In this document: piece by piece, positions 15,698-56,557 of the stretch
How the letters are laid out: each line of letters begins with the position of its first letter
Position numbering within the stretch: the stretch's first letter is position 1
Origin: Planctomycetota bacterium
Lineage (GTDB): Bacteria > Planctomycetota > UBA1135 > GCA-002748355
Direction of reading: 5' to 3'
DNA: 64,000 nucleotides
Assembly: GCA_002748355.1 (NCBI GenBank)
Contig: PDSF01000046.1
Location: forward strand, 204-64,203
Notes under the pieces: model-generated
What the model saw: the letters and a program-made list of their open reading frames with translations, nothing else
What the model was told of the DNA's origin: nothing
Databases searched by the model: none
Program-made: the position numbers and the translations under genes

Positions 15698-16759
15698 TCA
15701 GCCCCGCATCTGATCCACTCTCTTCCACTTCACCGTTGCCCGCGGCGACTCCATGTCCGCCCCCAAGAGAATCCTCCCCATAGGTAGAGTCACGCTGCTT
15801 CCCGGCAGCCGCCGGAAGTCCTCGAACAAGACCCGCATCCGCCGGGCCCCATCTCGGATCTCCAAGAGCAGCGGCAAACCCATTTCGGCCTCTAGATAAA
15901 TATCGAAACGCCGCTCCTTCGGCCTTAGGGCTGGCACCCTAGGCCCAATCAGCCGAGAGATATCCCCACTCCGCTCCCGCAAGCGCAACCGGATATAACT
16001 CCTTCCCAGCAATACGACTCGCTGTTCGCTTTCGAGTTCGAAACGAGTTCGATCGCCAAACACGAAAGGAAAACGCGCGAGAAGCCCCCAGACCTCGAGC
16101 AGCTCCTTCGCTTGCTTCTCTCGATCCGGTCGCTCGAGCCCGGCGCTACGGGCCCAGTTGCGCCTCCCGCTCCGCCCATAACTATCCCCGAGCGTCCACT
16201 CCACCGTATCACTGCGCGCGCGCCGCACGTCCAATACATGATGGAACTGATGCTCGAAGACTCTCTCACCATGTCGATCAATGCCGCGAAAGAGCCGCAG
16301 CACTCGTATCTTACCTAGGGCCTCAAAACGCGAACGCCCACCCATCCGATCCAGCAATCGATCGATAGCGTCACGCTCCCGAATCGCCATGCTCATACCC
16401 AGCGGCTTTTTACGCCGCGCAGCTTCCTGCTCTCCAGCCTCCGTTGAGGGGCGCCCCATCTTCTCCTGCAAATCGGGGACTTTCGGGCTCTGCTGTTTGA
16501 GGCTCTGCTCCTCGAGACTCAACTCCTCCATCGGCGCCTCAAGCCCACCACGCGAGGGTGCCGCAGGCGTAACTTCACCCCGAGGAGGCGACACTGGCGC
16601 CGGAGCCGGCGTCTTGACGGGGAGTTCCCTCACCGGCTCGGCTTGCTTTGTTGGCTTCTTGGTCGCTCTAGCGGGCGGCAGCAGTTCTGGCTCTTGGGCA
16701 AATGCGGAAGTAGCCAGCAGCAGCAGAGTACAGAGACGGAGCGCAGGCATCGTTGGCAT
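15698..16759 (-). CDS. Hypothetical secreted protein with Pro-rich N-terminal region
   Basis: The ORF was trimmed to the ATG at 16759, which gives the signal peptide MPTMPALRLCTLLLLATSAFAQ. No family recognised. Confidence 0.55.
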   Translation of the reverse strand: MPTMPALRLCTLLLLATSAFAQEPELLPPARATKKPTKQAEPVRELPVKTPAPAPVSPPRGEVTPAAPSRGGLEAPMEELSLEEQSLKQQSPKVPDLQEKMGRPSTEAGEQEAARRKKPLGMSMAIRERDAIDRLLDRMGGRSRFEALGKIRVLRLFRGIDRHGERVFEHQFHHVLDVRRARSDTVEWTLGDSYGRSGRRNWARSAGLERPDREKQAKELLEVWGLLARFPFVFGDRTRFELESEQRVVLLGRSYIRLRLRERSGDISRLIGPRVPALRPKERRFDIYLEAEMGLPLLLEIRDGARRMRVLFEDFRRLPGSSVTLPMGRILLGADMESPRATVKWKRVDQMRG

Positions 16760-16819
16760 CGGAGCTTCCTCTGCCTCTGCATCGACACAATGCCCAGGTT
16801 TCCTGTATTCCTGGGCCAC

Positions 16820-27760: not shown

Positions 27761-29260
27761 ATGCCGAGCCGCCATCCTATACTCGCCCTGCTGGTCGGCT
27801 CCTGCCTCTGGCTCGTGGGGTGCGCGAACGAGGGGCTGGAGCCCGGCCCCAGCTACGCTCTAAGCAAGGAACTGGCACTCACTGCCCAAGAAGCTGCTAC
27901 CTTGCTTGCCGAACTCACCGCACGAGAGTTCGATCAGTTCCGCAGCGATGAAGTGACCCCTCTCAGTCGCGCCGAACGGGAGAGCAGCGAGTCCTACCGG
28001 ATCTACTACCAAAGCGGTAACGGTGGCGGGTTCGAAGCTTTGGCCAACGTGGAGCTCGCACGCCAACGCTTCCTCTCCGCAGGCTCTGCACCACTGCTCA
28101 AACCACTCGCGAGTTCTCCGCTGGGAAAGATCCGCGAGCGCCCCCTGCATCGAGCGATTGCCCCGCACGGAGGCTCTAGATTCGTGATCGACGCTCGAAT
28201 CAAAGGGATAGGGCACGGCCACTGCAGAGTAGATCTACGGTGCACCGGCTCCGTGCTAGGCACATCCAAGGACCGCAGCCAGCGATGGATCGACACCCTG
28301 CAGCTCTGCGCAGGGATTCGCAGCGCCATACTCGACCTGCACCGAGGTGAGAGAAATCGATCCCAAAGCCGGCTAGAGCGAGCCCTGCAACGCCATCGCC
28401 TTACTCGCGGCAGTATCGCTCTCGATCTAGAAGCGATCGCTTTCGGGCTGCTGGCGCGCATCCAGGCGGAACAAGGCGAGTGGAATGCCGCCGAAACGGC
28501 ATGTAGCCACGCACAACTCCTGGCGCCGTGGTCGGCCGAACTCCACGAACTCCGATCTCGGATTGCAGGACGCCTCGGAGATCGAAAGGAGCTGGCCCGT
28601 TCGACCTGGCGGGCACAAGTATTCAAGGGGCCAGAAAACATCCAAATCCGGACACGCCTGGCAAAAACCGACTCGTGGTATGGCACGTGTTTGCAGGAGT
28701 CGCACGCCGCTCTCGCACAAAGAGATTACATCTCGGCGCGATCCTGGGCTGAACGCGCCCAAAACGAGTGCCCCGACCAACAAGAGGCTCCATTGCTTCT
28801 CGCCCGGATCGAGGCCCATAAAGGCCATTTCGAAGCGGCCCGTAACCTGCTCCTCTCCCAGATCCAAAGACAAGGCCCCGAAGAAGAACTGCTGCTCGAT
28901 CTATCCCAGTTCGAGGGCCAACTCGGCAATGAGGAAACCGCCATCCGCATCCTCCTGCGATATAGCAAGCGTTTCCCTGGACTCCTCACCCGTGCCAGAC
29001 TTCGCAGCCCCCAGGGCGCCGAGTCGATCCTGCGATACGCCCAGATGCTCCGATCCGAAAGCCTCACGAGCGACAGCCAGTTGTGGCTCTCTGAATGGAA
29101 GCACATTGTCGAAAACGCCAAGGACAGGCCGCTGTCCAAGCTCATTGGGCTCGAAGGAAAGAATAAGAGCACGAAAGACCGAAGAGCACGCGAGCCCTAT
29201 CACCGGAACACGGGCCCAGGAATTCACCCATCAGAGTCATGGGCTAGCCCAAGTCGCTAA
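27761..29260 (+). CDS. TPR-like lipoprotein
   Basis: MPSRHPILALLVGSCLWLVGC lipobox. The remainder is helical-repeat rich. Confidence 0.6.
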   Translation: MPSRHPILALLVGSCLWLVGCANEGLEPGPSYALSKELALTAQEAATLLAELTAREFDQFRSDEVTPLSRAERESSESYRIYYQSGNGGGFEALANVELARQRFLSAGSAPLLKPLASSPLGKIRERPLHRAIAPHGGSRFVIDARIKGIGHGHCRVDLRCTGSVLGTSKDRSQRWIDTLQLCAGIRSAILDLHRGERNRSQSRLERALQRHRLTRGSIALDLEAIAFGLLARIQAEQGEWNAAETACSHAQLLAPWSAELHELRSRIAGRLGDRKELARSTWRAQVFKGPENIQIRTRLAKTDSWYGTCLQESHAALAQRDYISARSWAERAQNECPDQQEAPLLLARIEAHKGHFEAARNLLLSQIQRQGPEEELLLDLSQFEGQLGNEETAIRILLRYSKRFPGLLTRARLRSPQGAESILRYAQMLRSESLTSDSQLWLSEWKHIVENAKDRPLSKLIGLEGKNKSTKDRRAREPYHRNTGPGIHPSESWASPSR

Positions 29261-29480: not shown

Positions 29481-32400
29481 ATGAGCCACCGAAGAAGCGG
29501 TACCATGCCAGAGCCCCTCAGCCTCCCCGATGACACACCGGAGGAATGCATCGCCATCGTCGGCATCGGACTGCGAGTTCCGGATGCCCGAAGCGCTGAG
29601 TCCTTCTGGCAGAACCTGGTCCGGGGCCACGAGTCACTCAGGCAGTTCAGCGAAGAAGAGCTCACCCAAGCCGGGGTAAAAGCAACAGAACTAGGAGATC
29701 CCCGCTACGTCCGTGCGGGCATGGTCCTCGACGGCTTCGACGAGTTTGACGCGGAATTCTTCGGACTCGGCCCGAAGGACGCCGCCATCATGGACCCCCA
29801 GCACCGCCAATTTTTATCTTGCTGCTGGGAAGCCATCGAAGACGCGGGGCACCCACCCTCGCGATTCCACGGAGAAATCGGAGTATTCGCCGGCTGCGGC
29901 ATGAGCTCCTACTTCATTTTCAATGTCCTCTCGCACAAGGAACTGCTTAACTCCGTCGGGCTCTTCCTGCTCCGGCACACGGGTAATGACAAAGATTTCC
30001 TTGCCACCCGCGCCAGCTACCAGTTCGACCTAAAAGGGCCCGCTATCAGCATCCAAACCGCTTGCTCAACCTCGCTGGTCGCGGTGCACATGGGGGCCCA
30101 AAGCCTCCTCGCCGGGGAGTGCGACATGGCGCTGGCGGGAGGCTGCACGATCGATATTCCCCACGGTCGAGGCTATCTCAGCAAAGAAGGAGAAATCCTC
30201 TCGCCCGACGGGCATTGTCGAGCTTTCGACGCTTCTTCTGCCGGCACGGTCTTCGGCAGCGGTAGCGCAGTCGTAGTATTGCGTCGCCTCGACGATGCTA
30301 TGCGGGACGGCGACCACATCTATGCCGTTCTGCATGGATCATCTGTCAACAATGATGGCTCGGGCAAGGTCGGCTATTTGGCCCCCAGCGTCGACGGACA
30401 AGCGGCTGCGATCGCCGAAGCCATCTCAATCTCAGGCCTGAACGCCTCCCAAATCGGCTACGTGGAATGCCACGGAACCGGCACCACAATCGGGGATCCC
30501 ATCGAGGTGGCAGCGCTCACCCAGGCGTTTCGCGAGTCCAGCAAGGGCATAGGTAACTGCCGCATCGGCTCGGTAAAAACCAATATCGGCCACCTCGACA
30601 CTGCGGCAGGAGGCGTGGGGCTCATCAAAGCTGCTTTATGCCTGAAACGTGGGGCAATACCTCCAAGCCTCCATTTCGAACGCCCCAATCCCAAGCTCGA
30701 AATAGAGTCCAGCCCCTTCGTCGTGGCGAAGGAGCTCACCGAGTGGCCCAGAGGCCCAGAGCCCCGCTTTGCTGGAGTAAATAGTCTCGGCGTAGGCGGT
30801 ACCAATGCCTTCGCTGTGCTCGGGGAGCCCCCCGTGAGCGAAGCACAAGCCCCTGCTTCTCCTGGCCCCCATGCCATTTGCCTCTCCGCCCGTAACGACG
30901 CCGCTCTTGATGCAGCCTGCAGTCGCCTTGCCTCCCACTTACAGGCCCACCCCGAACAGGCGTTAGAGGATATCGCCTTCACCCTGCTTCATGGCCGGCA
31001 CGCCTTCGATCGTCGACGCAGCTTCGCTTGCCGAGATCGCGCAGATGCGATCCAAGTCCTTGAAACTCGTGATCCGATCAGGATCGCAACCCGCAACCGA
31101 AACTCAAATCGCGAAAACCCGATCTTCCTCCTTCCCGGCGGCGGGTCGCAATACCCGGCGATGGGACGCGGCCTCTACGACACCGAGCCGATCTACCGCC
31201 AGCACATCGACAAGGGGCGTAAACTCCTTCGAGAGGAACACGGTATCGACCTGGACCCCCTGCTGTTTCCAAACACAGACGGTTTCGCCAAAGCCGAATC
31301 CGAGTTCCTCCGCCCATCGCTGCAACTCCCTGCCCTGTTCTTGGCCGAATACGCCTTAGCCCAACTTTGGGGTGAACGTGGGGTCCAACCGGCCGCCCTA
31401 CTTGGGCACAGCATGGGCGAGAACACAGCAGCATGTATCGCCGGAGTCATAGACTTCCAAGCTGCACTGGGTCTCGTGGTCCTGAGAGGCCGACTATTTG
31501 AAGAGATTCCTCCCGGAGGGATGGCGAGCGTCTCTCTCGACGAGCCCAGCCTGCTCAAACTCTTGCCCGACACTCTCGATCTCGCCGTCGTAAACGGCCC
31601 CCAAAACTGCGTGGTCTCGGGCGAGACCAACGCCTTACAGGCATTTATCTCAAAACTTGAAGGGCGTGATATCGAGGTTCGGCGCATCCGCATCTCGATT
31701 GCAGCACACTCCCGGATGCTAGATCCGATCCTGGACGAGTTCGGCGCCTACCTACAGAAACAGGAGCTCCGAAAACCGACAATCCCGTTGCTTTCAAATC
31801 TAACGGGTACCTGGCTCAGCGATGAGGAAGCGACATCTCCTGATTACTGGGTCCATCATCTTCGGGAAACGGTCCTCTTCGGCAGCTGCGTCACAACGGC
31901 TCTTGAAGGAAACGAGTCGCCCTTGCTCGAAGTCGGCCCCGGACGCAGCCTCAGCTCGCTCTCGCGCATCAACCCGGCCTTCGGCGGCCGCCGTGATGCC
32001 ATAGCCACCTTCCGACACCCCGATGAGAAGACTCCAGACGACATTCATTTCCTAAACGCATTCGCCCGGCTATGGGCCAATGGCTTGGCTGTCGACGAGG
32101 CGCGCCTGGTCCCAACAGAGAATCGTCGGCGGGTGTCCTTGCCAACATACGCTTTTCAGGAGCAGCGTTACTGGATCGAAGCCCTCGAAACCCAAGCGAA
32201 CAGGGAACAAGAGATCTCCATCGAGCGCATTGAGCGTATCGAGGAATGGCCTCTCGTACCAAAATGGCAGGCTTCTTCTCTGGCTGGGAGCAGCAATCAA
32301 AACCAAAGATGGCTGGTCCTCGCTGACAAATCTGGCGTGGGCGAGGCATTAGCGCATCACATTCGTCAATCGGGGGCGGATCTAATCCTCGCTCGTGAGG

Positions 32401-35400
32401 GTGATCGCAATACCCGTCAGACGGACGACGAGTTCCTCATCGCCCCCGAAATCGCGACCGAAGGCTTCGACGAGCTTTTCTCCGTGCTCGCGAACGAGGA
32501 CCGCCTCCCCGATCGAATCGTTCTGTGCTGGCCTATCACTCACTCAAACGATATTCGACCTGGGTCCAGCGCCCTACACCACCACAAGGAGCGAGGCTTC
32601 CTTGCAGTTTTAGAATTGGCGCGAGCACTGGCCAGTGTAGGCAGTGATGGCAAGGTTCACATCACGGTTGCCAGCAATGGGATGCAATCCGTATGCGGGG
32701 AGAAACTCAACTCCCCCGAGAAGGCCTTGCTCTTAGGCGCTTGCCGAGTCTTGCCACGAGAATTGCCCAACGTGCACTGCAGCACGATCGACGTACAGCT
32801 CCGCGAAAAGAAGAGTTTCCTCCTTGGACATGTCAGCTTCTCGCATCGCTCCATCCAAGCTGCCGCTACTGCCATCTATCGGGAAGCCTGCTCCTATCCC
32901 GAGGCGACTTGTACCGTAGCTGCCGTTCGCGGTGACAAGCGTTATGTCGAAGCTCTTGAGCCCACAAAGTGGGACGCATTCCCCGCACGTAATCAGCCCT
33001 ATCTCAGACCCGGAGGCCTGTACCTCCTAACAGGAGGGCTGGGCGGCCTCGGGCTTCTTGCCGCCGAGGAACTCGCAAGCCAGGAAAAGGTCAAGCTATT
33101 ACTCGTCAGCCGAAGCCATCTCCCCGACCGCAGCGAGTGGCCAGGGTGGTTACGTCAGCCGGACAGCGCCGACGAAACGACAAGCATTATTCGTCGCATC
33201 CTGGCGATAGAGGAGAGTGGCTCGGAAGTCATCGTAGAGCAAGCCGATATCACAGATGTAGAAGCCATGCGAAGCTTGCTCCACAAAGGGGAGAAAGCTC
33301 ACGGACCATTACGCGGAATCCTGCACACAGCCGGCGTTCTGGATGAAGGCCCGATCCCCACGCGGGATGCGGGGAAAATTGATCGAGTCCTAGCCGCCAA
33401 GGTCTCGGGCACTCTCGTCCTAGACCAGTTTCTCGAAGAATCCCCCAAGAAGGATGACCTCGATTTCTTCTTGCTGTATTCATCGACTAGCGCACGAATC
33501 GGCCCTCCGGGCCAGATCGACTACGCAGCAGCAAACGCTTTCCTGGACGCCTTTGCGACCAGTGCTCGCTCCAAATATCCCATCTGCTCAGTGGCCTGGG
33601 GCATCTGGAACGAAACAGGGATGGCCGCCCGATCGCTTGTTGAAAACAAAGCAGAGCCATCTCCCGTCCAAGCCAAACAGAAAGCGCAGCATGCCCCCTT
33701 CATCGAGTACTCTCAAAATGCTAACGGTTCCGGTTTTGTCATGGCGGAGCTGGACGACGAGCGCGACTGGATCCTCGATGAGCACCGACTACGCTCGGGA
33801 CGATCGATCCTTCCTGGATCTGGCTTCGTCGACCTGGCTCTTGGCGCCGCGCGTGAACTCGGACATGACGGCAAGGTCACGCTAAAAGACCTCGTTTTCC
33901 TCCGCCCTCTCTTCGCCGATCACCGCCCCCTTTCGCTCCGCTTCATGTTTACTCCCAGCATGTCTGGGTTACGGCTGGATATCGAAAGCAAGGTCGAGCT
34001 TCCAGATGGCCAAAGCGGTTGGCTTCGCCACGCACAAGCCACTCTCGTGCCCGACTCAGAAGAGCTAGCTCCTGCGGCATTGGACATAAGCGATCTCAAG
34101 CATCGCTTTCCCGACCGCAAAAAAAGCAAGAAGGGAGAAGCCATCCCCGTGGACCAAGCCGATCGATTGCGCTTTGGGGCCCGCTGGGAATGCCTCCGAG
34201 AGATATCCTTCACCTCAGATGAGGCTCTCGCCCTCCTGGAGTTATCACCCAGCTTTACTTCCGACCTGGAGCTGAGCCGCGCTCATGCTGCCATGCTCGA
34301 CATGGCGACCGGCTACGCCTTGCGCCTGGATCAAGGCTTTGGTGAGGACGGCGGGCTCTGGGTTCCGCTTACCTACGAATCTCTCACTCTCCACCATTCC
34401 CTACCGGCTCGCTTCCGAAGCCACGTAAGAAAACAGGGGCAAGCAGGGGCAGAGAACTCGGAACTGGCTCGTTTCGACATCGATCTATTCACGCCGGATG
34501 GCACGCTGCTCTGCGAAATCCGCGGCTACACGATGCGAAAGGTTGTGGTCACGGAGTTCCAGCTCGCCAATACGAAGACCCCTTCTGCTCGCGACCTTCG
34601 ATTACAGGCTTCGGGGCAAACAACCAAGAGTTCAAGCCCGGGCACCGCGAGCAAGCTCCACGAACATCTGCGCTTCGGCATCCGTCCTGAAGAAGGACAG
34701 CGCTGCATCAGTGAACTCATTAGGAAACAACTGCCCCCCCAAGTCGTTCTCAGCTCAATCTCATTACCGAGCCTCGCCAAACAGCTCGATCTCACCTCCG
34801 CAGACGCTGACAACGGCGAAACCCGCTTTTCTCGGCCCGTGCTCAGCAGTGACTTCGAGGAACCTGCCGACGACGTCGAACGGACACTACGGGACTACTG
34901 GGAGGAACTCCTGGGAATCGAAGGCATCGGCGTCGAGGACAACTTCTTCGATCTCGGCGGACACTCCCTAATCGCGGTCCGTTTGTTTGCCCGCATACGC
35001 CAAGCCTTCGGCGTGGATTTTCCGATTTCGGTCCTATTCGAAGCGCCCTCGATCCGTTCCTGCGCAGCTCTATTGCGAAAGCGTGCCACTCAGCCAGTCA
35101 ACGAGGATGCACAGCCCAGCGCGACTCAAGTGCGGCATGTCGTCCCGATGAGTAAGAGGATACAGAACGGCTCGCGCCCCCTGTTCCTTGCTGCGGGGAT
35201 GTTTGGGAACATCCTTAACCTGCGCCACCTAGCGGCTCTTCTAAGCAAAGACCGTCAAATCTTTGGCCTACAGGCCCAAGGCCTGTTTGGCGATTTGCCT
35301 CCACACGAGTCCTTCGAAGAAGCGGCGAGGGAGCATCTCAAAGAGATCCGAGCCCTACAAGCAACAGGCCCCTACCTCATCGGCGGCTTTTCCGGTGGCG

Positions 35401-35966
35401 GCCTGGTGGCATACGAAATGGCACAACAGCTCCTGGCCAGCGGTGAAGAGCTTGGAGCCTTGGTCATGCTGGACACCCCGCTTCCAATTCGGCCACAGCT
35501 GTGCCGCCGAGACAAGGTCCAGATTCACCTGCAACGCCTCAAGCAAGACAAGCACCGCTATTTCCTAGAGTGGCTTCGCAACCGCACACGTTGGGAGCTT
35601 GCGAAAATGGCCAAGGTCTTCCGCTCCGACAGCCGCTCCGAAAACGAAAGTAGCTACCATTCGGCCGCCATCGAAGCAGCTTTTCGGCGATGCCTTGAAC
35701 GGTACGAGATTCAGAAGATCGACATCCCAATACACCTCTTCCGCCCTCCGCTCGACCTCGCCCATCCCATAGGGCCGAACCGCTTCGCCAACGCCGCTCG
35801 CGAAATCGTCATTTCCGACAATGGTTGGTCGGAGTACTCTCCCGATGTCCATGTAATCGAGGTGCCCGGAGACCACGACTCCATGGTGCTTGACCCCAAT
35901 GTCAGAGTGCTGGCAGGGCACCTCCGGAAGCTTCTGCAGCGCGCTGATCAGGCCCATTATGAGTGA
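29481..35966 (+). CDS. Type I polyketide synthase, single module: KS-AT-KR(structural+catalytic)-DH-carrier-TE
   Basis: KS: TACSTS Cys codon at 30063, ECHGTGT His at 30471, NIGHLD His at 30591. AT: GGGSQ and GHSMGE, with the Ser codon at 31410. KR: YLLTGGLGGLGL at ~33021 and YAAANAFLDAF with Tyr at 33522, preceded by a ~240-aa pseudo-KR region. DH after KR: LDEHRLRSGRSILPGSGF with His at 33783, and HAAMLDMATG with Asp at 34309. Carrier: NFFDLGGHSLIAV with Ser at 34965. TE: GGFSGGG with Ser at 35391 and GDHDS with His at 35873. No loading domain precedes the KS. The start could instead be the ATG at 29505. Confidence 0.95.
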   Translation: MSHRRSGTMPEPLSLPDDTPEECIAIVGIGLRVPDARSAESFWQNLVRGHESLRQFSEEELTQAGVKATELGDPRYVRAGMVLDGFDEFDAEFFGLGPKDAAIMDPQHRQFLSCCWEAIEDAGHPPSRFHGEIGVFAGCGMSSYFIFNVLSHKELLNSVGLFLLRHTGNDKDFLATRASYQFDLKGPAISIQTACSTSLVAVHMGAQSLLAGECDMALAGGCTIDIPHGRGYLSKEGEILSPDGHCRAFDASSAGTVFGSGSAVVVLRRLDDAMRDGDHIYAVLHGSSVNNDGSGKVGYLAPSVDGQAAAIAEAISISGLNASQIGYVECHGTGTTIGDPIEVAALTQAFRESSKGIGNCRIGSVKTNIGHLDTAAGGVGLIKAALCLKRGAIPPSLHFERPNPKLEIESSPFVVAKELTEWPRGPEPRFAGVNSLGVGGTNAFAVLGEPPVSEAQAPASPGPHAICLSARNDAALDAACSRLASHLQAHPEQALEDIAFTLLHGRHAFDRRRSFACRDRADAIQVLETRDPIRIATRNRNSNRENPIFLLPGGGSQYPAMGRGLYDTEPIYRQHIDKGRKLLREEHGIDLDPLLFPNTDGFAKAESEFLRPSLQLPALFLAEYALAQLWGERGVQPAALLGHSMGENTAACIAGVIDFQAALGLVVLRGRLFEEIPPGGMASVSLDEPSLLKLLPDTLDLAVVNGPQNCVVSGETNALQAFISKLEGRDIEVRRIRISIAAHSRMLDPILDEFGAYLQKQELRKPTIPLLSNLTGTWLSDEEATSPDYWVHHLRETVLFGSCVTTALEGNESPLLEVGPGRSLSSLSRINPAFGGRRDAIATFRHPDEKTPDDIHFLNAFARLWANGLAVDEARLVPTENRRRVSLPTYAFQEQRYWIEALETQANREQEISIERIERIEEWPLVPKWQASSLAGSSNQNQRWLVLADKSGVGEALAHHIRQSGADLILAREGDRNTRQTDDEFLIAPEIATEGFDELFSVLANEDRLPDRIVLCWPITHSNDIRPGSSALHHHKERGFLAVLELARALASVGSDGKVHITVASNGMQSVCGEKLNSPEKALLLGACRVLPRELPNVHCSTIDVQLREKKSFLLGHVSFSHRSIQAAATAIYREACSYPEATCTVAAVRGDKRYVEALEPTKWDAFPARNQPYLRPGGLYLLTGGLGGLGLLAAEELASQEKVKLLLVSRSHLPDRSEWPGWLRQPDSADETTSIIRRILAIEESGSEVIVEQADITDVEAMRSLLHKGEKAHGPLRGILHTAGVLDEGPIPTRDAGKIDRVLAAKVSGTLVLDQFLEESPKKDDLDFFLLYSSTSARIGPPGQIDYAAANAFLDAFATSARSKYPICSVAWGIWNETGMAARSLVENKAEPSPVQAKQKAQHAPFIEYSQNANGSGFVMAELDDERDWILDEHRLRSGRSILPGSGFVDLALGAARELGHDGKVTLKDLVFLRPLFADHRPLSLRFMFTPSMSGLRLDIESKVELPDGQSGWLRHAQATLVPDSEELAPAALDISDLKHRFPDRKKSKKGEAIPVDQADRLRFGARWECLREISFTSDEALALLELSPSFTSDLELSRAHAAMLDMATGYALRLDQGFGEDGGLWVPLTYESLTLHHSLPARFRSHVRKQGQAGAENSELARFDIDLFTPDGTLLCEIRGYTMRKVVVTEFQLANTKTPSARDLRLQASGQTTKSSSPGTASKLHEHLRFGIRPEEGQRCISELIRKQLPPQVVLSSISLPSLAKQLDLTSADADNGETRFSRPVLSSDFEEPADDVERTLRDYWEELLGIEGIGVEDNFFDLGGHSLIAVRLFARIRQAFGVDFPISVLFEAPSIRSCAALLRKRATQPVNEDAQPSATQVRHVVPMSKRIQNGSRPLFLAAGMFGNILNLRHLAALLSKDRQIFGLQAQGLFGDLPPHESFEEAAREHLKEIRALQATGPYLIGGFSGGGLVAYEMAQQLLASGEELGALVMLDTPLPIRPQLCRRDKVQIHLQRLKQDKHRYFLEWLRNRTRWELAKMAKVFRSDSRSENESSYHSAAIEAAFRRCLERYEIQKIDIPIHLFRPPLDLAHPIGPNRFANAAREIVISDNGWSEYSPDVHVIEVPGDHDSMVLDPNVRVLAGHLRKLLQRADQAHYE

Positions 35967-36993
35967 AACAGCCATCGTGGTCATTGGCCGCAATGAAGGA
36001 CAGCGCCTCATTGCCTGCTTTGACTCTCTCCGTGGTCGAGAGCCCTACCTGGTCTACGTAGATTCCGGTTCCTCTGATGGAAGCATCGACGCCGCACTGA
36101 GCCGCGGCATCGATGTCATCACTCTGGATACCGATTCGCCCTTCACTGCCGCTCGAGCACGAAATTCCGGCTGGCGGCGCTCTGTAGAGCGCCATCCTGA
36201 ACTCAAATATGTCCAGTTTGTCGACGGGGATTGCTGCGTAGACCCTGACTGGATTTCCTTTGCCCACAACCACCTGAAAAATCACCCTAAGCTCGCTGCC
36301 GTTGCGGGCAGACGCAGAGAACGCCACCCAGAAGCAAGTCGCTACAACCTACTCTGCGACATGGAGTGGGACACTCCCATCGGAGAAGCGGCAGCCGTCG
36401 GGGGTGATGCCATGTTTCGCATCGCAGCTCTTCAGGAAGCTGATGGGTTTAATGACCAGCTGATCTGCGGAGAAGAGCCTGAACTCTGCTTCCGATTGAG
36501 ACAACGTGGCTGGAGCATGGAGCGACTCGACCACGAAATGACCCTGCACGATGCCGATATGCATCGATTTGGTCAGTGGTGGAATCGATCCAAACGTGGC
36601 GGCTGGGCTTTCGCAGAAGGAGCCGCAATGTATGGCGACAGCGAAGAGCGCTACAATGTCCAGCAATACCGAAGCATCTGGATCTGGGCAGCCCTTCTAC
36701 CGTCCACCCTTTTGATTCTGGGAGGGCTCGTCACAGGCTTCGTGTTCCAGAGCTTCTTCGCTGCAGCCATCGGAGCAGTGCTAAGCCCCTTACTCCTTAT
36801 GCCACTGGCCTTGTGGCTCAACTCTTGGCGAGTTGCCCGGAATCGCGTCCAACGTCACGGCGACTCGTGGCGAAGCGCAAAGACCTATGCCTTCTGGGCG
36901 CTGCTCTGGAAGTACCCTGCGTTCCTAGGACTGCTGTCTTTTGCCCAGCACAGGCGTAGCAATCGCAAAGCTTCACTGATCGAGTACAAGTAA
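35959..36993 (+). CDS. Family 2 glycosyltransferase with C-terminal TM helices
   Basis: The ORF was trimmed to the ATG at 35959, which overlaps the PKS stop (ATGAGTGA). It has the GT-A pattern AIVVIGRNEG, YVDSGSSDGS, DGD (DxD) and GEEPEL. Two or three hydrophobic helices lie near the C-terminus. Confidence 0.8.
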   Translation: MSETAIVVIGRNEGQRLIACFDSLRGREPYLVYVDSGSSDGSIDAALSRGIDVITLDTDSPFTAARARNSGWRRSVERHPELKYVQFVDGDCCVDPDWISFAHNHLKNHPKLAAVAGRRRERHPEASRYNLLCDMEWDTPIGEAAAVGGDAMFRIAALQEADGFNDQLICGEEPELCFRLRQRGWSMERLDHEMTLHDADMHRFGQWWNRSKRGGWAFAEGAAMYGDSEERYNVQQYRSIWIWAALLPSTLLILGGLVTGFVFQSFFAAAIGAVLSPLLLMPLALWLNSWRVARNRVQRHGDSWRSAKTYAFWALLWKYPAFLGLLSFAQHRRSNRKASLIEYK

Positions 36994-37000
36994 CCTAGCC

Positions 37001-38104
37001 ATGCATACAGCAAATAACGCATCTAGGGCTAGCTCCGCAATCGCTCCGGAGATGCGTGAGGTCTTGGTCATCATCGTCAACTATCGTTCGGCCACCTTAA
37101 CCTTGCCCTCACTGGAATCGGTCAATGAGGAACGAAGACTACTGGCAACGGAATCCCCGCCAATCAATCTTCGAGCCGTAGTGGTCGAGAACGACTCGGG
37201 AGATGAAGAAGAGCTACGCACTGGTATCGACGACCTGAATTACGGCGACTGGGTCACCCTCATCGCCTCTGACCGCAATGGCGGCTATGCCGATGGCAAT
37301 AATCTGGGAATCGCTCACGGGTTTGCGAGCCAAGCGGCACCAGACTTCATTCACTTCCTGAATCCGGACACCAAGATCCGCCCCGGAGCGATACAGGAGC
37401 TAATCAGATTTCTGGACGAGCACCCAAAGGCTGGACTCGTAGGGAGCGCCTTCTTCAATGGTGACGGTAGCCCTTGGCCGATGGCGTTTCGCTTTCCTAC
37501 TATATGGAGTGAAATCGAGTCGGGTATCGGCTGGGGCCTCATCTCAAAGCTTATGCGGCGCTGGATCGTCGCCCAGGAGATGCCCCCACATCCAGTAAAA
37601 ACCGACTGGGGCCCTGGGGCCTCGATTATCGTGCGCCGAGCTGTCATCGATCGACTCGGCGGTATAGATGCCGGATACTTTCTTTATTTTGAAGAAACCG
37701 ATTACTGCCTTGCCGCCCAAAAAGCGGGATTCGAATTTTGGCGAGTCCCCGCCAGCGAGGTCGTTCATTACTCCGGGGCAAGCACCGGTGTCACAACGAA
37801 GCGCGATCGCCCTATAAGGCTACCAAACTACTGGTTCGAATCGCGGCGACGCTACTTTTTAAAGAACCACGGATTATTCTACGCAATCGCCTGTGACCTT
37901 TGCGCCGTGGCTTCTCGGCTCATAGGTATGGTAAAGGCAACGATCCTGGGAAGAAGACGCAGCTTGGTGCCCTTTTACATAAGGGATCTACTGCGGCACA
38001 GCCCTCTCCTACGACGGAACCGTAAGTGCGAACCCGGCATGCGATATAGCCGCGAGCATCCCAGCGAATATGAGCAGCGGGCATGCGGAAGGGGCGTGAC
38101 CTAA
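37001..38104 (+). CDS. Family 2 glycosyltransferase (WbbL/rhamnosyltransferase-like layout)
   Basis: VLVIIVNYRS, VVVENDSGD, NGGYADGNN, FLNPDT and YFEETDYC motifs. It starts 7 nt after the preceding GT2. Confidence 0.8.
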   Translation: MHTANNASRASSAIAPEMREVLVIIVNYRSATLTLPSLESVNEERRLLATESPPINLRAVVVENDSGDEEELRTGIDDLNYGDWVTLIASDRNGGYADGNNLGIAHGFASQAAPDFIHFLNPDTKIRPGAIQELIRFLDEHPKAGLVGSAFFNGDGSPWPMAFRFPTIWSEIESGIGWGLISKLMRRWIVAQEMPPHPVKTDWGPGASIIVRRAVIDRLGGIDAGYFLYFEETDYCLAAQKAGFEFWRVPASEVVHYSGASTGVTTKRDRPIRLPNYWFESRRRYFLKNHGLFYAIACDLCAVASRLIGMVKATILGRRRSLVPFYIRDLLRHSPLLRRNRKCEPGMRYSREHPSEYEQRACGRGVT

Positions 38105-38167
38105 GCTCACCAATAGCCTAACAGAGCCCGTATAAGGTCTCGCCAGGGCAGAGTCATACCAAATCAA

Positions 38168-39199
38168 ATGACCCCAGAGACCCTCATCACTGGCGCCACA
38201 GGCTTCCTCGGCGCTTCCCTCGCCCGCGCCCTACTGCTGCGCGGGGAGAGCTTACGCCTGCTCATGCGGCCGGAGAGTAACCGTGTCAACCTGCTGGGGC
38301 TGGTGAAGCATGGAGCGGAATTGTGTGAGGGGTCTATCGAGGATGAGGGAGTGCTTCGCCAAGCACTAAGCGGTGTGCGGCGGGTTTACCACTGCGCGGC
38401 AAAGCTCTCCTTCCGAAAGCAGGACCGCAGGGAAATCTGGCGCAGCAATCATCAAGGCACGGCAGGGCTGGCCAAACTCGCCCGCGAGGCCGGAGTCGAA
38501 CGATTGCTCCACGTTTCCTCACTCGTGGCGGTCGGCGCATGCAAAGCAGGTGCGCCGCCACTAACCGAAGAGTCCCCCTACAACCTGGCGTCCTTGCGCA
38601 TCCCCTACTGCGAGAGCAAACATGCGGCAGAACAAGCCGTGCTTATGGAGCATGCTCGCGGCCTGGATGTGGTCATCGTCAACCCTTCGCTCATCATTGG
38701 GCCAGGCGATCTGCGCGGGCCTGGTGACTCGATCCTGCTAGCAATCGCTGAGGGCAAGGCCCCTTTTCTCCCTCCCGGCGGCATCAACGTCGTCGATGTG
38801 CGTGACGTAGTTGCTGGCAGCATCGCCGCAATGGAAAGCGGCCGTAGCGGTGAGAGGTATCTCCTTGGTGGTCAAAACCTCAGCCATGTCGAACTCGCTC
38901 GGATCACCCTGCGCATTCTCGGCCGGCAGCAGAGACTCCGAAGACTCGCTCCAGCCCTCTACTCCCCACTAGCCCGCATAGCGGGGCTCGCAGAAAGCTT
39001 TGGACTTGTACGCCAGCCGCTGACCGGCGCGCTACTGCGCCTGGCTGCCAAGCACATCTACTGCGACTGCAGCAAGGCGGAAAAGGAACTCGGCTATGCC
39101 GCCTACCCGATCGAGATGGCCATAAAGGCCTCCTTCGATCAATGGCTCGACCGCGACCAGGTCTCCCCCTGTATCGTCGCCGGCCTAGGCCGGCTCTGA
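38168..39199 (+). CDS. Extended short-chain dehydrogenase/reductase (NAD-dependent epimerase/dehydratase, HpnA / 3beta-HSD-like)
   Basis: ITGATGFLGASLARAL Rossmann motif and YCESK (YxxxK). Length 343 aa. Confidence 0.8.
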   Translation: MTPETLITGATGFLGASLARALLLRGESLRLLMRPESNRVNLLGLVKHGAELCEGSIEDEGVLRQALSGVRRVYHCAAKLSFRKQDRREIWRSNHQGTAGLAKLAREAGVERLLHVSSLVAVGACKAGAPPLTEESPYNLASLRIPYCESKHAAEQAVLMEHARGLDVVIVNPSLIIGPGDLRGPGDSILLAIAEGKAPFLPPGGINVVDVRDVVAGSIAAMESGRSGERYLLGGQNLSHVELARITLRILGRQQRLRRLAPALYSPLARIAGLAESFGLVRQPLTGALLRLAAKHIYCDCSKAEKELGYAAYPIEMAIKASFDQWLDRDQVSPCIVAGLGRL

Positions 39200-39249: not shown

Positions 39250-40833
39250 TCAAAGCTCGCAGCCTAGCTCCTGCTCGACCCGCCGCAGCAGCTCTCCACT
39301 CCGCACGATCTCCTCGGCAACCGCTAAGTCTGGCGCAAGATAACGATCTTCACCGAGAGGCGGAATATGCTCACGCACCACTGCGAAGGCAGCCTCTACG
39401 CCCCTGCCAGCCTTAATCGAATGATCAAAATGGAGCCCCTGCGCTCCACTGATCAGCTCGATGCCTAAGACCTTTGCCGTGTTATTCACAATGTCACGGG
39501 CATGGCGGGCTGCGGTAACGCCCATCGAAACATGATCTTCGCGATTGGCCGAAGTAGGTATCGTGTCGACCGAAGCCGGATGCGCGAGGCTCTTGTTCTC
39601 ACTCGCCAGGCTCGCGGCAACCACCTGCGGAATCATGAGCCCGGAGTTAAGACCTGGGTTCGGCGCAAGGAAGGGCGACAGCCCAGAGAGGTCGGGATTG
39701 ACCAGGTTTTCGATACGACGCTCAGAGATATTGGCCAGGGTGGCGATCGAAATACCGAGGAAGTCGAGGGCCTGGCTGACCGGCTGCCCATGGAAGTTCC
39801 CCGCCGAGATCACATCGCCATCGGCAAAGACCAAGGGATTGTCGGTCGCAGCGTTGATCTCGCGCTCGAGTACGCCCTGGACAAAAGCAAAGGCATCCCG
39901 TGCCGCTCCGTGCACCTGCGGCACGCAACGCAGACTGTAAGCGTCCTGAACCTTTCCGCAGTCCTTATGCGAAGGAATCACCTCGCTGTCCTCAAGGAGG
40001 GCCAAGAGATTCCTCGCAACAAGCGCCTGCCCTAACTGACCTCGCGCCTGATGCACCTTGGGCTGATAGGGCTGACAGCTTCCTCGCAGAGCTTCGAGCG
40101 AAAGCGCGCAGGCGATATCTGCACTTTTGAGTACGCGTCCGCCGATCAGCAGGGCATGCACGCCGATAGCGGTCATGCACTGGGTACCGTTGATCAGCGC
40201 CAAGCCCTCCTTCGCAGACAACTCAAAGGGCTTGAGTCCCAGCGCAGCGAAGCGTTCAGCGGTGGGGACGGGTCGCCCTTCGAACCAAACATCGCCCTCG
40301 CCCAGCAGCGTCAGCGCCACGTGTGCGAGAGGTGCAAGGTCGCCCGAGGCACCGACACTGCCCTGCTCGGGGATCACCGGGATCAAGCCTTCATTGAAGT
40401 GCAGCAGCAGTCGCTCAAGGAGTTCTCGGCGAACGCCCGAATGCCCCTTCGCCAGCGCCTGCACGCGGAGGAGGATCATCAGACGCGAGATCTCCACCGG
40501 GAGGGGACACCCAACGCCGGTTGCGTGACTCAGGATCAGGTTACGCTGCAGCTGCCCGAGCTTGTCGGCTTCGATCGCAACTCCAGCGAGCTTGCCAAAG
40601 CCGGTATTGACGCCATAGACCGTGCGGCCGGTGCGAACCACTTCCTCCACGACCTCTCGAGACGCGGCGCAGCGGGACCATGCATCCTCACTGAGATCAA
40701 GGCGCGGGACAGGGCCCTCGAGAACGGGCTGGAGATCGGAAAGAGTGAGACCCTCGCCGGAAAGGCGAAGGACTTGAGCATCGGCGTTCGGAGTCATCAA
40801 AAGGGATATATCAGCCAGGCCCGGTCGACGCAC
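39250..40833 (-). CDS. hutH: Histidine ammonia-lyase (MIO enzyme)
   Basis: GSVGASGDLAPLAH (the ASG triad that forms MIO). The selectivity region LILSHATGVG carries the Ser-His pair that I recall as HAL-type rather than TAL (His-Leu) or PAL (Phe-Leu). Confidence 0.85.
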   Translation of the reverse strand: MRRPGLADISLLMTPNADAQVLRLSGEGLTLSDLQPVLEGPVPRLDLSEDAWSRCAASREVVEEVVRTGRTVYGVNTGFGKLAGVAIEADKLGQLQRNLILSHATGVGCPLPVEISRLMILLRVQALAKGHSGVRRELLERLLLHFNEGLIPVIPEQGSVGASGDLAPLAHVALTLLGEGDVWFEGRPVPTAERFAALGLKPFELSAKEGLALINGTQCMTAIGVHALLIGGRVLKSADIACALSLEALRGSCQPYQPKVHQARGQLGQALVARNLLALLEDSEVIPSHKDCGKVQDAYSLRCVPQVHGAARDAFAFVQGVLEREINAATDNPLVFADGDVISAGNFHGQPVSQALDFLGISIATLANISERRIENLVNPDLSGLSPFLAPNPGLNSGLMIPQVVAASLASENKSLAHPASVDTIPTSANREDHVSMGVTAARHARDIVNNTAKVLGIELISGAQGLHFDHSIKAGRGVEAAFAVVREHIPPLGEDRYLAPDLAVAEEIVRSGELLRRVEQELGCEL

Positions 40834-42327: not shown

Positions 42328-43395
42328 TCAAGCCTCTACGAGAGTCCGCATCTTGGCGACGAGGATGTCTCCGATTTCGTCGCAGCCATGCACGCCCGCC
42401 GACAGCGACTTGATCTCACCGTCGACGAGGCTCTGCCGCACGGCCTCTTCGACTGCCGCCGCCGCCCTGTGCTCCTCAAGGAAGTCCAGCATCATCGCGA
42501 CGGCCATGACCGTCGCGATCGGGTTGGCCTTGTTTTGACCGCGATACTTAGGCGCCGAGCCGTGGATGGGCTCGAACATGGATGTCTGCCCAGGGTGGAT
42601 ATTGCCCGAGGCCGCGACGCCCATACCGCCCTGCAGCATCGCACCGAGGTCGGTAATGATGTCGCCAAAGAGGTTGGGGCAGACCGCGACATCGAACCAC
42701 TCCGGGTTCTTGACCATCCACATGCACGCCGCATCGATGTAGGCGTGGTCCGTCTCGACGGTGGGAAAATCCCTCGCAACCTCGGCGAAGATCCGCGTCC
42801 AAATATCCTGACTACGCAGAGCGTTCGCCTTGTCAATCAGCGTGACCTTCTTGCGCGGCCGCTCGACTGCCCGCTCGAAGGCGTAACGCACAATGCGCTC
42901 CACGCCCTTGTGCGTGTAGACCATGGTCTGGGTCGCGACTTCGTCGGGCGTGTCTTTCTTTAGGTAACCGTAGATCCCCGAATACGCACCCTCGGTGTTC
43001 TCCCGACAGATCAGCATGTCCACGTCCTCGACACTCTTATCCTTGAGCGGGCAAAAGCGCGGGTCGTAGAGCTTGATCGGGCGGAGATTGACGAAGAGGT
43101 CGAGCTTGAAGCGAAGCCCGGCGATGATCGCGAACTCAAGCTTGCCGACCTCAATGCGCGGATCACCAATCGCCCCAAGCAAAACCGCATGCATGTCGCG
43201 CACGCGATCGAAAGCTTCATCCGGCATGGTCTCGCCGGTCTTGAGAAAGTGGTCCGCGCCGTAGGGCATTTCCTCGCGCTTGGTCTGGAAGCCGAAAATC
43301 TCCTCGGCAGCAGTCAGGACCTTCAGCCCTTCGCGCACCACTTCTTCACCGATGCCGTCCCCGGGAAGGGTGGCGATGTCGTAGACCTTGGTCAT
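42328..43395 (-). CDS. Isopropylmalate/tartrate/D-malate dehydrogenase family enzyme (DmlA/TtuC-like)
   Basis: [14 protein letters not shown]-terminus, [35 protein letters not shown] and [17 protein letters not shown]. By recollection it tracks E. coli DmlA more closely than classical LeuB. Confidence 0.85.
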
Positions 43396-43450: not shown

Positions 43451-45433
43451 TCAAAAGGCCGCCGGGCAGCTGTCGAGTACCTCGTCCGGAGAGACGATCC
43501 GGCCAAAGAAGGCCGACGCCGCTACGACGAGTGGACTCGCAAGATAGACCTGACCCGGACCAGAGCGCCCAGGGAAGTTGCGGTTGATCGCCGAAACTGT
43601 GACTTGATCCGGCGAATCGCTGACGCCCGGCCCGGCCTTGATACAGGCACCGCAGGAAGGGTCGATCAACTCGACACCCGCCTGCTCAAAAAGCTTCACG
43701 TGTCCTTTCTCGATCGCATAGTCACGGATCTCCTGCGAGCCGAATTGGATGTAGAGCTTGACGCCCGGCGCGATCGCCATGCCGCGCTCAAGCGCCGCAG
43801 CGACGACAGCGGCATACATGTCCATATCGGCCTTCTTGCCGCCAGTGCAACTGCCGCCATAGGCGATGTCGATGTTGACCTCTTCGCCGAGCCCGCTGAT
43901 CGGCACCCCGTTACGCGGATCTCCCGGTGTCGCGACCATCGGCTCGATCGCGCTCAGGTCGACATCGAAGCTCGCGTAGTACTCCGCGCCTTCGTCAGCC
44001 GTAATGATCCGCGCCCGCAGCTCGTCGACACTCTCGCGTCGGCGCGACGCTAGATACTCGACCGTCGTCATATCCGCGGCAACAACACCGGTCGTGCCCC
44101 CGGCCTCCACCGCCATATTGGTAAGCGTCGCCCGCTCATCCATACTCATCGCCCGGACAGCGGGGCCATCGAACTCAAGCACCTTGGCGATGCCTTCACC
44201 GCTCTTAAAGAAGTCCATCGACAGCAGGTGCAGCATCACGTCCTTGGCGACAATGCCGGGCTTCGGCGTGCCATGCAGGGTAAAGCGCGCGGTCTCCGGC
44301 ACGCGCACCCGGACGTCGCGTGTGAACCAAGAGTTCGCCATATCCGTGCTACCGACCCCAAAGGCGAAGGCTCCGAGCACCCCTCCCATACAAGTATGCG
44401 AGTCGGTGCCGACGATCAGCTCCCCGATATTGCCAAGCTCCTCAATAACCTTGTTATGGCATATCGCTTCACTGCCAACCGTTTGGCCATCCCGCTCGAC
44501 TTCGCCGAAGAGCCGGATGCCCTGCTCCTCGCAGAAGGCTTCCTGGACACCCTTCAGCGTCGCCGCCTGCTCACGCAAACCGAGATCTATATGCGCCTGC
44601 GGCATAACGCGGTCGAGGAAGGTCAAATGATCGCGAAAGGCAAAAACCGACTCCGGCTCTTGCACGCGAGCATCCTCGCCAAGCCCCTGCTTGAAGAGGC
44701 TGCGCGCCATCGGTGTCACATATTCATGGCTGAAGCGCACGCCAGCGCGCACAAAGAGAGCATCCCCCGGCTTCACTGCGGGAATACCGAGTTGCCCGGT
44801 CTTGGCATCGGCAATCGCATGCTTGGCGATAATCTTCTCGACAAGGGTCATCGGACGCGCTGGCGTCGAAATGGTCGGCGGCTGGACCTCCCCAGCGAGA
44901 CGCGCCTTATTGTAGGCAAAGAGTCCACCATGCCGCACAATGTCGGCAGCGATCGGATCGAGCCCCTTAGTAAACTCGTCGATCGGAATCTCCTCTCCGG
45001 ACCGAACGCGGTCGAGAATCCCAAAATCGCTCGTCGTCAGCAGGCCGATGTTCTGGCAGTTCTGCCCGTAGATCTTCTCGATGCTCTTCGCGACCACCAG
45101 CTGTACACCGCAGGCAAGCTCACTGAACGGGGCCGTCTCGCGGGAGCTGCCGCAACCCTTCGACAAACCCGAAACGATGGTCCCGAAGCCGCCCCCCTTG
45201 ATGTCGTCCTTCTTGACGACGGCGCCCCGCAACCCAACCAGACAGTACTCGGCGAGGGTCTCGTCGTAGTAGTAACAGACCCAACCAGGGGTCAGCTCGT
45301 CGGTCGAAATATTGTCAATCAGCTCGATGGACGGATCCCAAGCGATGTCCTCCCCATCGAGCTGCCGGCGCAGTAGCTCGGGGTCACGGGTGAGGTAGAG
45401 GATCCGGCCTTCGATCTTGACGGAATGACGCAT
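43451..45433 (-). CDS. Aconitase-family dehydratase, single polypeptide with N-terminal swivel (LeuD-like) domain followed by LeuC-like domains
   Basis: The N-terminus has DNISTDELTPG and SKGCGSSRETAP (small-subunit pattern). Then come MTLVEKIIAKH, GTDSHTCMGG, GGSCTGGK and CGACIKAG (large-subunit and Fe-S ligand patterns). Length 660 aa. Confidence 0.85.
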   Translation of the reverse strand: MRHSVKIEGRILYLTRDPELLRRQLDGEDIAWDPSIELIDNISTDELTPGWVCYYYDETLAEYCLVGLRGAVVKKDDIKGGGFGTIVSGLSKGCGSSRETAPFSELACGVQLVVAKSIEKIYGQNCQNIGLLTTSDFGILDRVRSGEEIPIDEFTKGLDPIAADIVRHGGLFAYNKARLAGEVQPPTISTPARPMTLVEKIIAKHAIADAKTGQLGIPAVKPGDALFVRAGVRFSHEYVTPMARSLFKQGLGEDARVQEPESVFAFRDHLTFLDRVMPQAHIDLGLREQAATLKGVQEAFCEEQGIRLFGEVERDGQTVGSEAICHNKVIEELGNIGELIVGTDSHTCMGGVLGAFAFGVGSTDMANSWFTRDVRVRVPETARFTLHGTPKPGIVAKDVMLHLLSMDFFKSGEGIAKVLEFDGPAVRAMSMDERATLTNMAVEAGGTTGVVAADMTTVEYLASRRRESVDELRARIITADEGAEYYASFDVDLSAIEPMVATPGDPRNGVPISGLGEEVNIDIAYGGSCTGGKKADMDMYAAVVAAALERGMAIAPGVKLYIQFGSQEIRDYAIEKGHVKLFEQAGVELIDPSCGACIKAGPGVSDSPDQVTVSAINRNFPGRSGPGQVYLASPLVVAASAFFGRIVSPDEVLDSCPAAF

Positions 45434-54522: not shown

Positions 54523-54705
54523 CCCTCCATTGTGACGAGGTGACCCAGCGCCTCCAGCCTGATCTCGCCATACTCTGCCCTCAGCCGAACGCCGCTTCGC
54601 GCTTTCGCCCACCCCAACGCTCGGCTAGGCTCGCTCCTGAATATCGAATCAATAAACCAGGCCCATATTCACTGAAACAGGCCCCAGCCCAAACGGAGCA
54701 GGCAC

Positions 54706-56450: not shown

Positions 56451-56557
56451 GCCCTGCAGCTTGAAGCAGGCAGGACGGAAACCGGCATGGGCCGGGCTTT
56501 CGTCCTGCCTCACAGGCCAACTCAGGTTCGCCCTTGGCTGAAGACGAAGGGGGGTTC

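Follow-up and report, generated by a model that had tools for sequence, protein, structure and literature searches.

How is a polyketide synthase (PKS) primed when it begins directly with its ketosynthase (KS) and brings no loading domain of its own, and what kind of product would it release? The question is raised by a type I PKS gene (29481..35966, + strand; PIE22426.1) in a 64,000-nucleotide stretch of the Planctomycetota contig PDSF01000046.1, the whole of which is referred to here as the window. The initial annotation, made from the letters alone, had called this protein loader-less, had likened the order of its ketoreductase (KR) and dehydratase (DH) to that of iterative polyunsaturated fatty acid (PUFA), enediyne and heterocyst-glycolipid (hgl) synthases, and had suggested a glycosylated, membrane-associated polyketide or fatty lipid as product. 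We find that the locus belongs, as a dispersed Planctomycetota version, to a known, widespread and still orphan family that pairs a nonribosomal peptide synthetase (NRPS) with a PKS, and that the PKS is not a new kind of synthase. We think it reasonably probable that the PKS serves as the module for extension and termination in a two-protein hybrid NRPS–PKS, loaded by a protein with a formyltransferase (F) domain, an adenylation (A) domain interrupted by a monooxygenase (MOx) and a carrier (T) domain, encoded at 48204..52904.

A loading protein encoded at a distance from the PKS

In the loci of two PKS relatives, the gene next to the PKS encodes a protein of ~1570 aa in which Pfam recognizes Formyl_trans_N/C, an AMP-binding domain interrupted by Bac_luciferase, and PP-binding. 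An open reading frame (ORF) of the same size and architecture lies in the window 12 kb downstream of the PKS gene, at 48204..52904 (+), and encodes an NRPS loading module of 1566 aa, F-A(MOx)-T, with a basic C-terminal tail (PIE22437.1). We scanned one genome per species for PKS relatives and fetched 83 loci for neighbourhood comparison, counting neighbour genes on all six-frame ORFs; the NRPS was scored as present where a tblastn match covering more than half of the window NRPS lay within 10 kb of the PKS. By this measure an NRPS orthologue accompanied the PKS orthologue in 73 of the 83 loci, mostly directly adjacent to it. With such a partner present in the window and so regularly found elsewhere, the PKS is not loader-less: the initial annotation was right that the PKS polypeptide itself holds no loading domain, but a dedicated F-A(Gly, MOx)-T module is encoded on the same stretch. 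Whenever a PKS appears to be without a loader, the rest of the stretch should first be searched for a partner gene.

The A domain of the window NRPS has the specificity code DILQLGVIWK, a glycine code, and glycine is its predicted substrate. All 62 NRPS orthologues that were aligned (62/62, the window included) kept the code DILQxG[MV][IV]WK, the N-H-D triad of the F domain and the carrier serine. The luciferase-like monooxygenase insert sits between the FDxS motif and the rest of the A domain and matched the solved PuwE monooxygenase (6ket) at E 3e-104, while the best solved relative of the protein overall was LgrA, the formylating initiation module of gramicidin. Between the F and A domains, at residues ~300-540, lie ~240 aa without a Pfam match, with 18% mean identity among orthologues compared with 36-47% for the other domains; this interval is either a long linker or an unrecognized domain.

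The two proteins also carry opposite charges at the termini that would have to meet. Across 60 NRPS/PKS pairs the C-terminal tail of the NRPS had a mean charge of +5 and the head of the PKS, ahead of the KS, a mean of -2.65. The window pair was the strongest of all, with +10 on the NRPS tail (GAKRAAKRRARRRRKN; 52850-52901) and -3 on the PKS head (29505-29560), and the basic tail and acidic head may form an electrostatic docking pair. The tail often reads ...AM(A/S)(R/K)RRAMRARR, and the pairing of tail and head was kept even at loci where the two genes are separated.

Domains and catalytic residues of the PKS

Read from 29481 the PKS has 2161 aa; an alternative ATG at 29505 gives 2153 aa, the form held in the databases (PIE22426.1, from a Planctomycetota metagenome-assembled genome, MAG). 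Its one module runs KS-AT-psiKR-KR-DH-T-TE, where AT is the acyltransferase, TE the thioesterase, and T a carrier resembling a peptidyl carrier protein (PCP). Pfam boundaries, numbered from 29481, were KS 23-400 (29547..30680), AT 549-820 (31125..31940), psiKR (Beta-ketacyl_N) 945-1111 and catalytic KR 1179-1378 (together 32313..33614), DH (PKS_DH_N and PS-DH) 1421-1689 (33741..34547), PP-binding 1802-1865 (34884..35075) and thioesterase 1900-2097 (35178..35771), all on the + strand. The order read by the initial annotation, with the KR before the DH and then a single carrier and a TE, is thereby confirmed, and so is its observation that no enoylreductase (ER), phosphopantetheinyl transferase (PPTase) or exporter lies next to the PKS.

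The AT shows the motifs GHSMGE and IAAHS and the conserved Arg; in the KR, VLDE stands where B-type KRs have the LDD motif; the DH holds both its His (HRLRSGRSILP) and its Asp (HAAMLD); the carrier has the NRPS-type motif FFDLGGHSL; and the TE, of type I, has its Ser (GFSGGG), Asp and His. Across 25 aligned full-length orthologues the catalytic residues of all six domains were invariant, namely, numbered from 29505, KS C187/H323/H363, AT S636/R661/H735, KR K1299/S1326/Y1340/N1344, DH H1427/D1599, carrier S1821 and TE S1963/D1990/H2124. An AlphaFold model of the DH fragment (predicted local distance difference test score, pLDDT, 81.7) had the double hotdog fold, and its best structural matches were modular PKS dehydratases, at a target-normalized template modelling (TM) score of ~0.8. 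The carrier, which follows the DH and is the sole PP-binding domain of the protein, is PCP-like (GGHSL), and the portion from carrier to TE scored highest against Pks13 (62 bits), EntF (61 bits) and other NRPS models, by which the TE appears to be of the NRPS/Pks13 type. The AT motifs did not decide extender specificity, and a malonyl-type extender is assumed.

The NRPS–PKS pair across bacterial phyla

A PKS relative was encoded in at least 594 species genomes, which takes the family far past the roseobacters. The relatives in the database, ~100 proteins of 2100-2200 aa, have the Pfam set of the window PKS and are 45-50% identical to it at 99% coverage, and full-length PKS orthologues were found in 78 of the fetched loci. 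The fetched loci span Rhodobacteraceae, Planctomycetota, Myxococcota, Acidimicrobiia, Gammaproteobacteria, Chloroflexota and Acidobacteriota. In Planctomycetota, Myxococcota and Gammaproteobacteria the NRPS gene comes immediately before the PKS gene, both in one orientation, and the gene order in Rhodobacteraceae is PKS-GT2b-NRPS, GT2b being the second of two family 2 glycosyltransferase (GT2) genes, GT2a and GT2b, that follow the PKS in the window. In a neighbour-joining tree of the PKS the Rhodobacteraceae formed a single clade and the Planctomycetota were scattered on long branches, with the window PKS ~46% identical to all others, a pattern that fits an old family with transfers between phyla.

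Among marine roseobacters this cluster is already on record. A conserved PKS/glycosyltransferase/NRPS/PPTase cluster of unknown product is present in 28 of 57 roseobacter genomes (PMC4337385, PMC5014874), and the hybrid PKS/NRPS cluster is traced to Martens et al. 2007 as that work is cited in those two papers. According to a 2023 survey, the orphan cluster that relatives of Roseibaca most often have is an NRPS-like/T1PKS hybrid, whose similarity to MIBiG entries is very low (PMC10584327). The published gene sizes and order agree with those of our Rhodobacteraceae loci. The PKS of the roseobacter cluster is orthologous to that of the window (42-46% identity over the full length, same domain order), as is its F-A(MOx)-T NRPS, and a GT2 orthologue directly follows its PKS, where in the window both GT2a and GT2b follow; GT2b (37001..38104, +) is the one that matches the ‘glycosyltransferase’ of the four-gene roseobacter core. 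The differences lie in layout and in the accompanying genes. Whereas the roseobacter cluster is a compact four-gene unit, the window genes are dispersed over 28 kb; an extra GT2 gene, GT2a, stands between PKS and GT2b; the window, from a Planctomycetota MAG, holds no PPTase gene; and its NRPS, which otherwise shares the traits of the roseobacter type, is not adjacent to the PKS. We found no published product, only statements that it is unknown, in a search that mostly lay outside subscription journals, so a published solution could exist.

The other constant companions of the pair were glycosyltransferases. Orthologues of GT2b were present in 61 of the 83 loci, mostly directly after the PKS, those of GT2a in 28, and those of a family 4 glycosyltransferase (GT4; 56534..57766, + in the window) in 25 by tblastn, with a profile hidden Markov model (HMM) E-value of 1e-162 for the GT4 and with orthologues in several phyla. 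The PKS, the NRPS, GT2a, GT2b and GT4 were the only window genes with counterparts in related loci. Polysaccharide-assembly genes were frequent neighbours as well, and the link to glycosyltransferases made in the initial annotation has held up. Rhodobacteraceae loci also contained Wzy-like, Wzz, Wzx, WecG-type, Bac_transf, P-loop kinase and PPTase genes, and two Planctomycetota-type loci contained Poly_export, Bac_transf and flippase genes; none of the polysaccharide-assembly genes seen at other loci was found in the window. Of the 28 non-alphaproteobacterial loci, 18 had one or more genes of polysaccharide type, counting as such orthologues of GT2 or GT4 and polysaccharide-assembly genes, and about 10 had the NRPS–PKS pair with no such gene within 10 kb. 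The PPTase HMM matched at 50 of 56 alphaproteobacterial loci and at 6 of 28 others; it had no match within the 64-kb window, and a PPTase may be encoded elsewhere in the source genome.

Two further proteins recur at related loci. One of 851 aa and without a Pfam match (L040:23670-26225) is conserved beside the NRPS–PKS pair, and another of 325 aa, with weak DUF4886 similarity (L053:22695-23672), is related to it. Their counterparts occur in ~40 loci, from Rhodobacteraceae and some delta- and gammaproteobacteria, and are not found in the window; they could be glycan-modifying or acyl-transfer enzymes.

Proposed chemistry and fate of the product

Under the two-protein reading, the A domain would activate glycine, as its specificity code predicts, and load it onto the NRPS carrier, and the F domain, whose triad is intact, would N-formylate the tethered glycine with formyl-tetrahydrofolate, for which LgrA, OzmO and CongA offer precedent. 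The monooxygenase insert would then probably hydroxylate the alpha-carbon, by analogy with PuwE and MtaG. The basic NRPS tail would dock on the acidic N-terminus of the PKS, so that the KS could take over the (hydroxy)formylglycyl unit; the AT would load a malonyl-type extender, and one condensation, ketoreduction and dehydration would follow. The minimal product would be a C4 vinylogous amino-acyl thioester of the 4-formamido-but-2-enoyl type, possibly 4-hydroxylated, which the TE might release by hydrolysis, by lactonization or by transfer to a sugar, and GT2a, GT2b and GT4 would either attach sugars to the unit or make the glycan to which it is bound. Domain content, conserved catalytic residues, the association of the genes across phyla and the homology to ClbI and ClbB are direct observations, and from these the substrates, the number of extension rounds and the fate of the product are inferred. 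Each predicted intermediate has a defined mass by which it could be searched for directly, and the locus is worth noting as a target for product discovery.

A luciferase-like monooxygenase also interrupts a glycine A domain in MtaG, and MelG, like PuwE, carries an assembly-line luciferase-like monooxygenase domain. PuwE has been proposed to 2-hydroxylate a carrier-bound acyl chain (PMC4219810); the window domain differs from PuwE-type monooxygenases in standing in a loading module together with an F domain. For the handover between proteins there is precedent in the oxazolomycin and conglobatin lines, where an F-A(Gly)-carrier protein, OzmO or CongA, passes its N-formylglycine to the KS of another protein (PMC4504003, PMC9057759). 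The window NRPS resembles the loaders of such formylglycine-primed lines (OzmO/OzmQ, CongA, rhizopodin) in its F-domain triad, glycine code and carrier. In those lines, however, an OzmP/CongE cyclodehydratase leads on to long, oxazole-terminated polyketides, whereas here the beta-keto group would be reduced and dehydrated and synthesis would end after one module; unlike their loaders, moreover, the window A domain carries the monooxygenase insert. An OzmP/CongE-type candidate was not seen among the annotated conserved neighbour families, though no search was aimed at OzmP.

For the mode of release, Pks13, whose TE transfers its product onto a sugar, provides a lead, at a similarity that is weak (62 bits) and no better than that to EntF; the rest of its architecture and its starters are unrelated. 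Another lead comes from WcbR and RkpA, single-module PKSs inside polysaccharide loci (PMC3908369), whose architectures and starters are likewise unrelated otherwise.

Several points weigh against the two-protein reading. The two synthetase genes of the window are separated by 12 kb of sequence with housekeeping-type genes, and no PPTase is present, so that co-expression can only be presumed. The AT motifs gave no extender specificity, more than one round of extension may be compatible with the sequence, and the role given to the monooxygenase is argued purely by analogy. A complete NRPS was lacking within 10 kb at 10 of the 83 loci, some of which are short contigs.

That the end product is a glycoside or bound to a glycan is argued from the co-conservation of the glycosyltransferases, and is the least secure step of the scheme. 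Taken to its end, the scheme would have the family make an N-formyl-(alpha-hydroxy)glycine-primed vinylogous amino-acyl unit, to be attached by the TE and the GT2 and GT4 enzymes to a glycan or glycolipid of the cell surface; we offer this as a speculative extension, a good deal likelier to fail than to hold. If true, it would define a previously undescribed class of NRPS–PKS-tailored polysaccharides in hundreds of marine and soil species of at least seven phyla.

It is possible, although we consider it unlikely, that the product of the pair is instead a small molecule that is free to diffuse, for instance a signal, a toxin or a butenolide- or pyrrolinone-like compound, and that the glycan genes decorate it or are ancestral neighbours. 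TEs of this type do usually hydrolyse or cyclise, and about 10 of the 28 non-alphaproteobacterial loci have no glycan-assembly gene within 10 kb of the pair; yet specific GT2 and GT4 orthologues (HMM 1e-100 to 1e-160) accompany it in Gammaproteobacteria, Planctomycetota, Myxococcota and Acidimicrobiia, and GT2a and GT2b are translationally coupled to the PKS in the window. The synteny in Rhodobacteraceae does not count as independent evidence, because the PKS tree is monophyletic in that group. Wzx, Wzy, Wzz and priming-transferase genes recur, two Planctomycetota-type loci included.

Affinities of the KS and of the KR–DH region

Searched against solved structures, the window KS matched 7zma at 564 bits, 4oqj at 493, 4wky at 466 and 8xjy at 461; it reached 350-400 bits with ClbC, ClbK and chains named hybrid NRPS/PKS, and at most 306 bits with CurL, DEBS, MAS, Pks13 and fatty acid synthase (FAS). 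The nearest KSs were those fed aminoacyl or peptidyl units by NRPS carriers, and on these scores the window KS groups with the KSs of hybrid NRPS/PKS systems. Over 883 aa its KS-AT portion was 42% identical to ClbI of the Escherichia coli CFT073 pks island, and because this alignment has coordinates identical to those of the 8xjy match, 8xjy is identified as ClbI and 8xjz as the ClbH–ClbI complex. The entry 4oqj is probably OzmQ, to judge by its chain length (845 versus 842 aa). OzmQ is an 842-aa KS–acyl carrier protein (ACP) that receives formylglycine (PMC9057759). ClbI, too, receives an aminoacyl unit in trans from an NRPS carrier, that of ClbH; it is KS-AT-T, without reducing domains or TE, both of which the window PKS has.

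The KR-then-DH order, which the initial annotation had taken as a signature of PUFA, enediyne and hgl synthases, is shared by ClbB, a well-studied, single-round, NRPS-fed module. Its Pfam order is C-A-T-KS-AT (C, condensation), followed by KR 340-511, DH 547-799, ER 850-1142 and T, and the KR–DH region of the window PKS aligned with it colinearly over 587 aa (24% identity, E 3e-30), across the junction and both DH motifs. ClbB differs in the ER after its DH and in being fused to its own NRPS module; the colibactin starters differ from that of the window, and clbA-clbJ include no glycosyltransferase.

With the DH fragment as query, 125 relatives at E 1e-30 or better were found among 1.84 billion representative proteins. 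Those checked by Pfam (P0236, P0232, P0195 and P0198) had the architectures KS-AT-KR-DH-T without a TE, KS-AT-KR-DH-T-C-A-T and KS-AT-ER-psiKR-KR-DH-T-TE, and in P0232 the same DH-last module stands upstream of a C-A-T module. Given these architectures, ‘DH after KR’ is a wider module type within assembly lines, and together with ClbB (KR-DH-ER) the relatives suggest that hybrid assembly lines have a distinct arrangement of the reducing region that has received little discussion. As far as sequence can tell, the invariant core of the present family would be a formyl-glycine loading module with a built-in monooxygenase and a ClbB-like module with the DH after the KR; specific GT2 and GT4 enzymes accompany it, often near polysaccharide-assembly genes.

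It is improbable, by contrast with the reading as a hybrid, that the PKS is an iterative, self-priming synthase of PUFA, enediyne or hgl type, making a long polyene or fatty chain that becomes a membrane glycolipid through the GT2 enzymes. Its single module with KR, DH and TE and the membrane-type C-terminus of GT2a would suit that idea, and iteration is compatible with the sequence alone. PfaA, the enediyne synthase (PKSE) and HglE likewise start with a KS and place the KR ahead of a PS-DH-type DH, but the order is not diagnostic, as the homologous region of the non-iterative ClbB shows it too. The carriers of those synthases sit between AT and KR, whereas the window carrier is PCP-like and follows the DH, and the window PKS has a conserved glycine-loading NRPS partner and an NRPS-type carrier–TE portion. 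No PfaA or PKSE structure was among the best KS matches, and affinity of KS, KR or DH did not go beyond the general PKS level: the PfaA model TIGR02813 reached 298 bits on the PKS, where the cut-off is 1010, and 43 bits on the KR fragment, and found no match in the DH fragment. No ER, chain-length factor (CLF), PPTase or other partner subunit was found here. An affinity with PfaA, PKSE or hgl synthases was rejected on the NCBIfam scores, the ranking of the KS against solved structures and the comparison with ClbB, and the fatty, hgl-like lipid proposed at first is likewise disfavoured by the KS grouping, the PCP-like carrier, the NRPS/Pks13-type TE and the predicted glycine starter.

Genes following the PKS and composition of the window

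The ORF coordinates bear out the gene order, overlap and spacings of the PKS, two GT2 genes and short-chain dehydrogenase/reductase (SDR) gene given initially. GT2a (35959..36993, +) starts within the end of the PKS gene, its ATG (35959) overlapping the PKS stop TGA (35964-35966) inside ATGAGTGA, and it encodes a GT2 with a hydrophobic C-terminal stretch at residues 239-289. GT2b follows after 7 nt, and an extended SDR gene (38168..39199, +), HpnA/SdmB-like but below both family cut-offs, after another 63 nt; next comes a convergent aromatic amino-acid lyase gene (39250..40833). The tight coupling of PKS, GT2a and GT2b that had been proposed is supported. The SDR, which had been counted as part of the PKS system, does not belong with them: tblastn found no orthologue at any of the 83 related loci, and blastp found only distant extended-SDR domains, 27-30% identical over the Rossmann half and inside fusions of ~700 aa, at 9 loci. 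It was rejected as a cluster member, and, adjacent without being a conserved partner, it may be unrelated or else a sugar-nucleotide enzyme of this locus.

The GC content of the window is 0.606 (sd 0.023 over 1-kb windows). Per gene, GT2a (0.566) and GT2b (0.553) are the lowest of the window, with the PKS at 0.588, the NRPS at 0.605 and the SDR at 0.625. The low-GC dip is real but modest and limited to the two GT2 genes, and the accessory origin that had been read from it is only weakly indicated. The GC difference between GT2a or GT2b and the NRPS, the 12-kb separation with unrelated genes between and the absence of a PPTase from the window could also be read as a cluster broken up in the source genome, with the PKS primed by another acyl donor or a decaying remnant, but this is very improbable, given that the catalytic residues of both proteins are all intact, that the tail–head pair is kept at its strongest, that the GT4 orthologue is retained nearby and that split arrangements occur at other loci too (L012 and L069, for example).

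Neither a riboswitch nor another RNA was found upstream of the PKS or NRPS, and the window held no Rfam family and no tRNA; scans for promoters and terminators did no better than on shuffled sequence. As cluster members we also rejected FolD, the aromatic amino-acid lyase and two SPFH proteins, which had no homologue at any related locus, and the TPR protein, PIG-L, ROK and unnamed ORFs, with homologues in 0 related loci.

FolD (methylene-tetrahydrofolate dehydrogenase/cyclohydrolase; 53650..54612, -) is encoded 746 nt downstream of the NRPS with the F domain, in opposite orientation. It makes the formyl-tetrahydrofolate donor, but because no other locus has a FolD homologue near the cluster, its placement is probably a coincidence. 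Just past the GT4 gene, ORFs for a ROK-family protein (57882..58742, -) and a PIG-L-type deacetylase (58342..59520, +), neither with a homologue at related loci, overlap on opposite strands, for which reason one of the two calls may be wrong. Several HEAT/TPR-repeat proteins are encoded in the window, at 1138..2772 (-), 13618..15600 (-), 16643..18586 (+) and 27761..29260 (+); the TPR protein whose gene ends 220 nt before the PKS gene is not a conserved neighbour. An isocitrate/isopropylmalate dehydrogenase-family gene (42328..43395, -) adjoins a gene for a 660-aa aconitase-family protein (43451..45433, -) of permuted order, with the Aconitase_C match (87-133) ahead of the main Aconitase match (226-515).

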